A DNA stretch of 64,000 nucleotides from Escherichia coli. Lineage in GTDB: Bacteria > Pseudomonadota > Gammaproteobacteria > Enterobacterales > Enterobacteriaceae. Below, piece after piece: positions 40,003 through 40,303 of this stretch. Numbering within the stretch: position 1 is the stretch's first letter; each line of letters opens with the position of its first letter. Made by a program: the position numbers and the translations under genes. The stretch is taken from assembly GCF_013315695.1 (NCBI RefSeq), contig NZ_CP054353.1; one strand, written 5' to 3'. The notes under the pieces are model-generated. The model searched no databases and was not told the origin of the DNA. It saw only the letters and a list, made by a program, of their open reading frames with translations.

Positions 40003-40303
40003 GCCTGATGCGACGCTGTTGTGTCTTATCAGGCCTACGAGTTCAGTGCTGTGTGTAGGTCGGATAAGGCGCTCACGCCGCATCCGACAATAACAGCATT
40101 GCCTGATGCGACGCTGCCGCGTCTTATCAGGCCTACGAGTTCGGTGCTGTGTAGGTCGGATAAGGCGTTCATGCCGCATCCGACAATAACAGCATTGCCT
40201 GATGCGACGCTTGCGCGTCTTATCAGGCCTACGAGTTCAGTGCTGTGTAGGTCGGATAAGGCGTTCACGCCGCATCCGGCAATAACAGCCTTGCCTGACG
40301 CAA
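40003..40303. repeat. BIME cluster: three tandem ~97-bp units of alternating REP palindromes
   Basis: Unit starts at 40003, 40101, 40197 (gcctgatgcgacgctg...gtaggtcggataaggcg...gcatccgacaataacagcattg). Confidence 0.9.

Follow-up and report, generated by a model that had tools for sequence, protein, structure and literature searches.

A Tandem BIME-2 Array Fills the Spacer between pepA and holC in Escherichia coli

The pepA–holC–valS Locus

The stretch of DNA considered here (the window) consists of 64,000 nucleotides of Escherichia coli contig NZ_CP054353.1 (RefSeq assembly GCF_013315695.1). It contains pepA, holC, and valS, which are all on the minus strand (Table 1), with pepA upstream of the spacer of interest and holC as its downstream neighbour in the direction of transcription. 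The holC–pepA spacer of the window is 353 bp long and is filled by an array of REP palindromes, which starts directly at the pepA stop codon, leaves 52 nt ahead of the holC start codon, and is thus located in the 3' untranslated region of pepA. No REP feature is shown at the holC–pepA locus in the RefSeq record of K-12.

A search for sigma-70-like promoters and intrinsic terminators found none between 39800 and 40450; the nearest promoter-like sites on the minus strand are upstream of pepA and inside holC. Transcription started at the pepA promoters should therefore run on into the array, since the spacer contains neither promoter-like nor terminator-like sites. The promoter-like site inside holC (39634-39605, minus strand) comprises TTGCCA and TAGACT, separated by an 18-nt spacer and with an upstream TG; it lies around 100 nt before valS and could drive the expression of this gene without read-through from pepA. 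A separate observation concerns the coding region of pepA itself, where the Rfam family Ysr276 (RF02850), an antisense sRNA of Yersinia, matches over its full length on the antisense strand (41063-41257, plus strand, 180 bits); this match may reflect only the conservation of pepA.

Organization of the Array

Tandem Repeats Finder detects one array (40003-40298; period 96, 3.1 copies, 93% matches, score 504). Alignment of the units on the sequence allows 40003-40303 to be parsed into three units and a partial fourth head (Table 1), each unit consisting of a Z2 REP on the plus strand, a linker of 14–16 nt, an inverted Y REP, and a linker of 11 nt. The first-pass annotation had described three tandem BIME units of about 97 bp between holC and pepA, and this description holds: the spacer contains 3.1 copies of a unit of 96–98 bp, and the flanking genes are those identified by NCBIfam models.

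The REPs were typed by comparing the window, using blastn-short, with the consensus sequences that Durrant 2024 gives for Y, Z1, and Z2 REPs. The three Z2 REPs match their consensus over the full length at 91.7–97.2% identity, the three Y REPs match theirs at 90.6–94.3%, and no Z1 REP was found in the array in this comparison with the published consensus. The alternation is strict, with Z2 on the plus strand and Y on the minus strand, and the inverted-repeat pairs I1, I3, and I7 join adjacent REPs; the alternating palindromes noted at first reading are therefore direct Z2 and inverted Y elements when aligned to the consensus sequences. It is the whole 96-nt unit that repeats, at around 92% identity, including the segments between the REPs. 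The tail-to-tail linker is a 14-nt sequence, GAGTTCAGTGCTGT, in units 2 and 3, and has an additional GT in unit 1.

Every REP in the array is predicted to form a stable hairpin on either strand (−14 to −20 kcal/mol, z between −4 and −7), as exemplified by the Z2 REP of unit 1 (−20.2 kcal/mol, z = −6.6) and by the Y REP of the same unit on the minus strand (−19.2 kcal/mol). The first hairpin reached by a transcript leaving pepA is the Y REP of unit 3, 22 nt past the stop codon. When the whole spacer is folded as a pepA-sense RNA, the value is −164 kcal/mol (z = −9.9).

The two ends of the array are also structured. On the left, the first Z2 REP can base-pair through its head with a remnant of an inverted Z2 head, giving a hairpin at 39975-40015 on the minus strand (−17.1 kcal/mol, z = −2.8), and it is just to the left of this boundary that the allele devoid of BIMEs (see below) departs from the array allele. 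On the right, the partial Z2 head that abuts the pepA stop codon is also kept in other species of Escherichia, where it reads GCCTGATGCAA.

When 501 bp around the array are used as a query, they are found with 100% identity in the chromosome of E. coli MCJCHV-1, and parts of this query match dozens of places in 5,425 of the 5,426 complete E. coli genomes, as is expected for REP sequences. Within the window, too, there are REPs at other loci, among them one BIME-2 unit and one pair of the BIME-1 type (Table 1).

Table 1. Coordinates of the array, its parts, and related features of the window
Feature	Position	Strand	Evidence or remark
valS	36652-39507	-	NCBIfam equivalog model
holC (DNA polymerase III chi)	39507-39950	-	NCBIfam NF004345, 336 bits, full length
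Left boundary of array	39978-40002		Inverted Z2-head remnant CGCATCAGG at 39981-39989, plus a 13-nt stretch
Unit 1	40003-40100		98 nt
Z2 REP, unit 1, GCCTGATGCGACGCTGTTGTGTCTTATCAGGCCTAC	40003-40038	+	36/36 positions, 91.7% identity
IS621 target 11-mer, site 1	40028-40038	+	Exact; 3' end of unit 1 Z2
Tail-to-tail linker, unit 1, GAGTTCAGTGCTGTGT	40039-40054		16 nt; sequence
Inverted Y REP, unit 1	40055-40089	-	Consensus positions 4-35, 90.6% identity
naRNA4 match	40058-40133	+	Inverted Y, linker, and Z2
Head-to-head linker ATAACAGCATT	40090-40100		11 nt; sequence
Unit 2	40101-40196		96 nt
Z2 REP, unit 2	40101-40136	+	97.2% identity to Z2
IS621 target 11-mer, site 2	40126-40136	+	Exact; within unit 2 Z2
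Inverted Y REP, unit 2	40151-40185	-	blastn-short
naRNA4 match	40154-40229	+	Inverted Y, linker, and Z2
Unit 3	40197-40292		96 nt
Z2 REP, unit 3	40197-40232	+	97.2% identity to Z2
IS621 target 11-mer, site 3	40222-40232	+	Exact; within unit 3 Z2
Inverted Y REP, unit 3	40247-40281	-	35/35 positions, 94.3% identity
Partial fourth Z2 head GCCTGACGCAA	40293-40303	+	11 nt; abuts pepA stop codon 40304-40306
pepA (leucyl aminopeptidase)	40304-41815	-	NCBIfam NF002072, 1093 bits
lptF	42082-43182	+	NCBIfam equivalog model
Further REPs	6699-6783, 12939-13037, 44376-44404		blastn-short
One BIME-2 unit	16190-16274		blastn-short
Y(+)/Z1(-) pair, BIME-1 type	26155-26243		blastn-short; contains IS621 11-mer 26215-26225 (-)

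Identity of the Array

BIMEs have been described as a class since the 1980s–90s. In the classification of Gilson, Bachellier, and Hofnung, BIME-2 elements are defined as z2 and y REPs in multiple tandem copies with short linkers and a copy number that varies between strains, and a BIME-1 is a single pair of y and z1 REPs with a long L linker that bears an IHF site (Ton-Hoang 2012, PMC3333891). The array agrees with the former in its alternating Y and Z2 REPs, its short linkers, and its tandem copies; it also resembles this family in its extragenic position at the 3' end of a gene and in its strain-variable copy number, and the class is a substrate of gyrase. There is no essential difference, the tail-to-tail linkers of 14–16 nt and the head-to-head linkers of 11 nt being specific to the locus. 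On the basis of its sequence, then, the array is a BIME-2, made of three tandem units of Z2 and inverted Y REPs that occupy the entire pepA–holC spacer. As such, it is an ordinary and already known element: the K-12 allele of the same locus is listed as BIME-2 in a published table.

With BIME-1 and with the RIB and RIP elements the array has in common only an intergenic position and the pairing of a Y REP with a second, inverted REP. Those elements have Z1 rather than Z2, are present in single copy, and possess the long L linker with its IHF site, none of which is found here. The binding of IHF, which had been attributed to arrays of this kind at first reading, is a feature of the BIME-1 L linker (Ton-Hoang 2012, PMC3333891) and does not extend to this array: the IHF consensus WATCAANNNNTTR has no match between 34668 and 44732, the array included, and the linkers of the array are at most 16 nt long. 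The BIME-1-type pair at 26155-26243 likewise has no match to the IHF consensus in a scan of the whole window.

The regular period could bring to mind a CRISPR array, and open reading frames of 99 and 77 amino acids, found mechanically, do run across the repeats (40021-40320 on the plus strand and 40035-40268 on the minus strand). Both ideas can be set aside with near certainty. The array is not a CRISPR because the would-be spacers are linkers that repeat with the unit, with no unique spacer among them, as the first-pass annotation had already argued; REPs are, moreover, dispersed throughout the genome, and RefSeq annotates no coding sequence in the spacer of any genome inspected.

Allelic Variation and Phylogeny

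The number of units at the locus was counted in two sets of 59 complete E. coli genomes, each sampled systematically. Three units, with a spacer of 353–356 bp, were present in 26 genomes of the first sample and 25 of the second; two units, with a spacer of about 255–260 bp, in 13 and 13; and one unit, with a spacer of 159 bp, in 5 and 5, the latter five all being K-12-type laboratory strains. The remaining 15 and 16 genomes carry a BIME-free allele with a spacer of 133 bp. Three units are thus the commonest state (around 42–44%), followed by two (22%) and one (8%). The share of the BIME-free allele, about 26%, corresponds to 1,402 of the 5,426 complete E. coli genomes, so that the array is dispensable.

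The BIME-free spacer contains a different palindromic element, CCCTCTCCCTTAGGGAGAGGGTTAGGGTGAGGG, as in E. coli CRE1540, where the spacer extends from 1152 to 1284 (corresponding to 39951-40303 of the window). Its core of around 55 nt is a dispersed repeat of low copy number, found at a median of three places per genome, and an Rfam scan of this spacer returned nothing significant. In Pseudocitrobacter, Superficieibacter, Phytobacter, Kosakonia, and Kluyvera, too, elements similar to it follow closely on the pepA stop codon. The holC–pepA site seems to be occupied alternately by two repeat families.

To go beyond E. coli, HolC was used to scan one genome per bacterial species. The array is found, with the same boundaries and with the linkers specific to the locus, in E. 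albertii (three units), in E. whittamii (two units), in two cryptic Escherichia lineages (two units and one unit), and in the GTDB representative genome of E. coli, which has four units. Units at this locus are 88–95% identical across Escherichia species and only around 78% identical to the BIME-2 unit found at another locus of the window, which argues that the array is orthologous in these species, that it is older than E. coli, and that it changes by whole units. In the other Enterobacteriaceae, the spacer generally contains, a short distance past the pepA stop codon, either a REP-like palindrome particular to the genus or a CCCTCACCC/GGGAGAGGG element. Judging from the printed ends of 77 spacers from Enterobacteriaceae, a GC-rich palindrome of whatever family is present soon after this stop codon in most of them. 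At the other end of the spacer, the 30 or so nucleotides before the holC start codon are conserved.

The Array as a Target for IS621

The naturally observed target of IS621 is ATCAGGCCTAC, with a CT core, and 144 of the 173 genomic sites at which wild-type IS621 inserted in BL21(DE3) were in REPs (Durrant 2024). The first-pass annotation had presented REP arrays as targets of IS621-type elements, and comparison with these sites bears this out for the present array. Against an expectation of 0.03, the window contains six copies of the 11-mer, of which three, all exact, are in the Z2 REPs of the array (Table 1); the other exact targets are at 13008, at 16215, and in the BIME-1-type pair. In the Y REPs of the array, the sequence reads ATCCGACCTAC and departs from the target in two nucleotides. 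Natural sites have the target sequence, with its CT core, at the 3' end of Z-type REPs, and so does the array.

Natural IS621 insertions into REPs were, reportedly, already described by Choi in 2003. A search for such insertions in the array itself required the complete element, which was recovered from a record found via the IS621 protein fragment returned by a PDB search; it is 1,279 bp long, with TTATCAGGCCT at the junction on one side and CTACG on the other. A chimeric query made of the 203 nt next to holC and the 400 nt of the IS621 left end was then compared with the 5,426 complete E. coli genomes. In two of them, CUVET20-416 and GPEC403-625, IS621 is inserted in the first Z2 of the array, at site 1; the junctions TTATCAGGCCT–IS621–CTACG could be read in both, the position equals 40028-40038 of the window, and the expected CT is present on each side of the IS, whereas the window's own array has no IS621. 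One of the two interrupted arrays has two units and is a divergent allele, and the other has three units and a sequence identical to that of the window. The IS621 transposase proteins also differ between the two genomes. Since both the array alleles and the transposases are different, the two insertions look independent and would be separate events.

A second query, consisting of the holC and pepA ends only, was run against 5,425 genomes, and the distance between the two genes exceeded 800 nt in only three, which means that large insertions in this spacer are rare. CUVET20-416 is one of the three, and GPEC403-625, with a gap of around 1.6 kb that includes IS621, is presumably the second, so IS621 explains at least two of the three large gaps. 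In BL21(DE3), the array likewise has three units and carries all three target sites (NZ_CP053602.1, 4397054-4397064, 4397152-4397162, and 4397248-4397258). Experimental insertions at the array of this strain were not found, by gene name or by coordinates, in those supplementary files of Durrant 2024 that were searched, which is not evidence of their absence.

The IS110-Family Element Elsewhere in the Window

The array had seemed of interest initially because an element of the IS110 family, to which IS621-type elements belong, is present elsewhere in the window. A link between the two was considered and rejected. The transposase in question (62361-63494, minus strand) has IS110 Pfam domains and is annotated as ISEc45-like in other genomes; its match to IS621 is weak and lies in the C-terminal domain (E = 5.5e-9). 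The element (around 62100-63560) interrupts the tnpC gene of an IS66-family element: the TnpC frame loses sense after ...AERALRAVCLGKKN near 62100 and picks up with FFGSDHGGERGALLYGLIGTCRLNGIDPEAY... at 63561, after which comes an IS66-type terminal repeat, the split point being ...LGKKN / FFGSDHGGERGA... In addition, blastn-short detected no REP in the window beyond 44404. Given its insertion in tnpC, the target of this ISEc45-like element is not a REP, and for this reason the element adds no interest to the array.

In several other genomes, the ISEc45-like element has the same IS66 flank on one side and a different flank on the other, a pattern suggesting that it targets IS66 transposase genes by their sequence or that the two elements are transferred together. 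The element belongs to an island (47857-64000) downstream of tRNA-Leu(CAA) (47271-47355) that also contains a C-5 cytosine methylase (47857-49098), a KwaB-like Kiwa defence protein (53996-54955, minus strand), a tyrosine integrase (56310-57593, minus strand), and nested fragments of IS66, IS110-family, and IS21 elements. Between lptF and this tRNA, the window has yjgR (44399-45982) with an ahr-like dehydrogenase (46056-47117) directly after it; the L-idonate genes idnR-idnT-idnO-idnD-idnK, which are located between yjgR and ahr in MCJCHV-1 and BL21(DE3), are absent from 45983-47355.

Comparison with REP325 and naRNA4

The only Rfam family found in the array is naRNA4 (RF02564), which matches twice, at 82.2 and 77.9 bits, above its gathering score of 59.5. 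The K-12 array REP325, which was reportedly studied together with naRNA4 by Qian in 2015, is likewise a tandem Y and Z2 BIME-2 array between co-directional genes and likewise scores above the gathering threshold. REP325, however, has six units of 100 bp with other linkers and six naRNA4 matches of 95–111 bits that are sense to yjdM and yjdN, whereas the present array has three units of 96–98 bp and scores of 78–82 bits, and its matches are antisense to pepA and holC. The units are, therefore, inverted relative to transcription when compared with those of REP325.

One could imagine, from these matches and from the fact that the same type of unit forms REP325, the source of naRNA4, that the array gives rise to naRNA4-like, nucleoid-associated small RNAs that condense the chromosome together with HU. 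This is very improbable. The matches that exceed the threshold are antisense to pepA and holC, the spacer has no promoter-like site reading in that direction, and REP325/naRNA4 itself does not measurably compact the nucleoid (Harris 2026).

Gyrase and the Array

Another property of the array concerns the DNA rather than the RNA. The genome-wide mapping of gyrase cleavage sites in a K-12 strain revealed that these sites are enriched in some BIME-2 elements but depleted in those of the BIME-1 type, that Y REPs are cut more often than Z2 REPs, and that the BIME-2 signal is undiminished under rifampicin (Sutormin 2019). In Table DS3 of the same study, the holC–pepA BIME-2 (83 bp, the one-unit K-12 allele) has two cleavage sites with ciprofloxacin (Cfx), one with rifampicin and ciprofloxacin (RifCfx), none with microcin B17 (Micro), and two with oxolinic acid (Oxo). 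This allele has the same position, boundaries, and outer half-unit sequence as the window array; it has one unit in a spacer of 159 bp, whereas the window, like BL21(DE3), has three in a spacer of 353 bp. The gyrase binding that had been ascribed to such arrays on first inspection is thus supported for the BIME-2 class and, at the locus itself, for the one-unit allele of K-12 (Sutormin 2019). We consider the recruitment of gyrase to be a probable second, DNA-level property of the array, with the cleavage data coming from the one-unit K-12 allele.

Might this be the main role of the array, as a strong gyrase site, independent of transcription, or as a topological insulator between the pepA and the holC–valS domains? 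The sites mapped in the K-12 allele, one of which persists under rifampicin, and the transcription-independent enrichment of cleavage in the BIME-2 class would fit such a role (Sutormin 2019), but only some BIME-2 elements are cleaved, the number of sites here is at most two per condition (Sutormin 2019), and a quarter of E. coli genomes do without the element. We therefore hold this role to be improbable.

Probable Effects on the Neighbouring Genes

By analogy with REP325, the most likely local effect of the array is a dual one, in which it would stabilize the pepA mRNA and attenuate the expression of holC and valS. In the six-unit REP325, between the tandem genes yjdM and yjdN, the upstream yjdM mRNA is stabilized and yjdN is attenuated; the dependence on Rho is partial and is seen only with the full array, fragments with 2–4 hairpins being insufficient for Rho-dependent termination; and the effects of REPs depend on context (Harris 2026). 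For mRNAs terminated by Rho, the 3' ends that are protected from exonucleases have also been found to be set by stable hairpins, including some REPs (Dar and Sorek 2018). Transcripts leaving pepA would carry six stable REP hairpins, and these hairpins might block 3'-to-5' exonucleases, thereby stabilizing the pepA mRNA and setting its steady-state 3' end. The same hairpins might partly attenuate read-through into holC–valS, perhaps with some dependence on Rho. Several facts count against this role: relative to transcription, the units are inverted with respect to those of REP325; there are three of them rather than six; the effects of REPs depend on context, and small numbers of hairpins did not suffice for termination by Rho (Harris 2026); and about a quarter of E. 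coli genomes do without the element.

As to the dependence of holC and valS on this read-through, the insertions described above are informative. Two strains tolerate a 1.3-kb IS621 between pepA and holC, and holC–valS, therefore, probably has promoters of its own; this suggests that the expression of these genes is independent of read-through across the array.

An alternative is that the array is purely selfish or neutral, the site tolerating it without any host function there while its copy number drifts by slippage. Such an element could be expected to vary as this one does, from none to four units within a single species, and to be replaceable, as in the 26% of genomes that carry an unrelated element; the other enterobacterial genera, with their own REP types or the CCCTCACCC/GGGAGAGGG element, also suggest turnover rather than conservation of sequence. 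However, the GC-rich palindrome near the pepA stop codon in most of the enterobacterial spacers is consistent with selection for a 3' hairpin of one kind or another, gyrase cuts the K-12 allele in vivo (Sutormin 2019), and REP325 measurably affects its neighbours (Harris 2026). A wholly neutral array is the less probable explanation.

The array would have originated as a selfish element of the REP/RAYT type, and slippage or unequal recombination between units that are around 92% identical would change their number. We have good confidence in a combined interpretation of the array as a BIME-2 of selfish REP/RAYT origin that most likely stabilizes the pepA mRNA and partly attenuates holC–valS.

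Implications

A more speculative idea is that the number of units is a heritable, strain-specific dial that sets the pepA:holC–valS ratio, via mRNA protection and via an attenuation by Rho that depends on array length, and maybe also the strength of a local gyrase site, which has a gene of the replisome and an essential gene for a tRNA synthetase as its neighbours. We regard this as doubtful.

Independently of this idea, the locus is a clean variable-number repeat, with either no BIME or one to four units, and might be used as a natural allelic series in which the number of REPs is related to the expression of the neighbouring genes. The array is also a documented natural landing pad for IS621, which bears on the prediction of where the wild-type bridge recombinase inserts in strains such as BL21(DE3).
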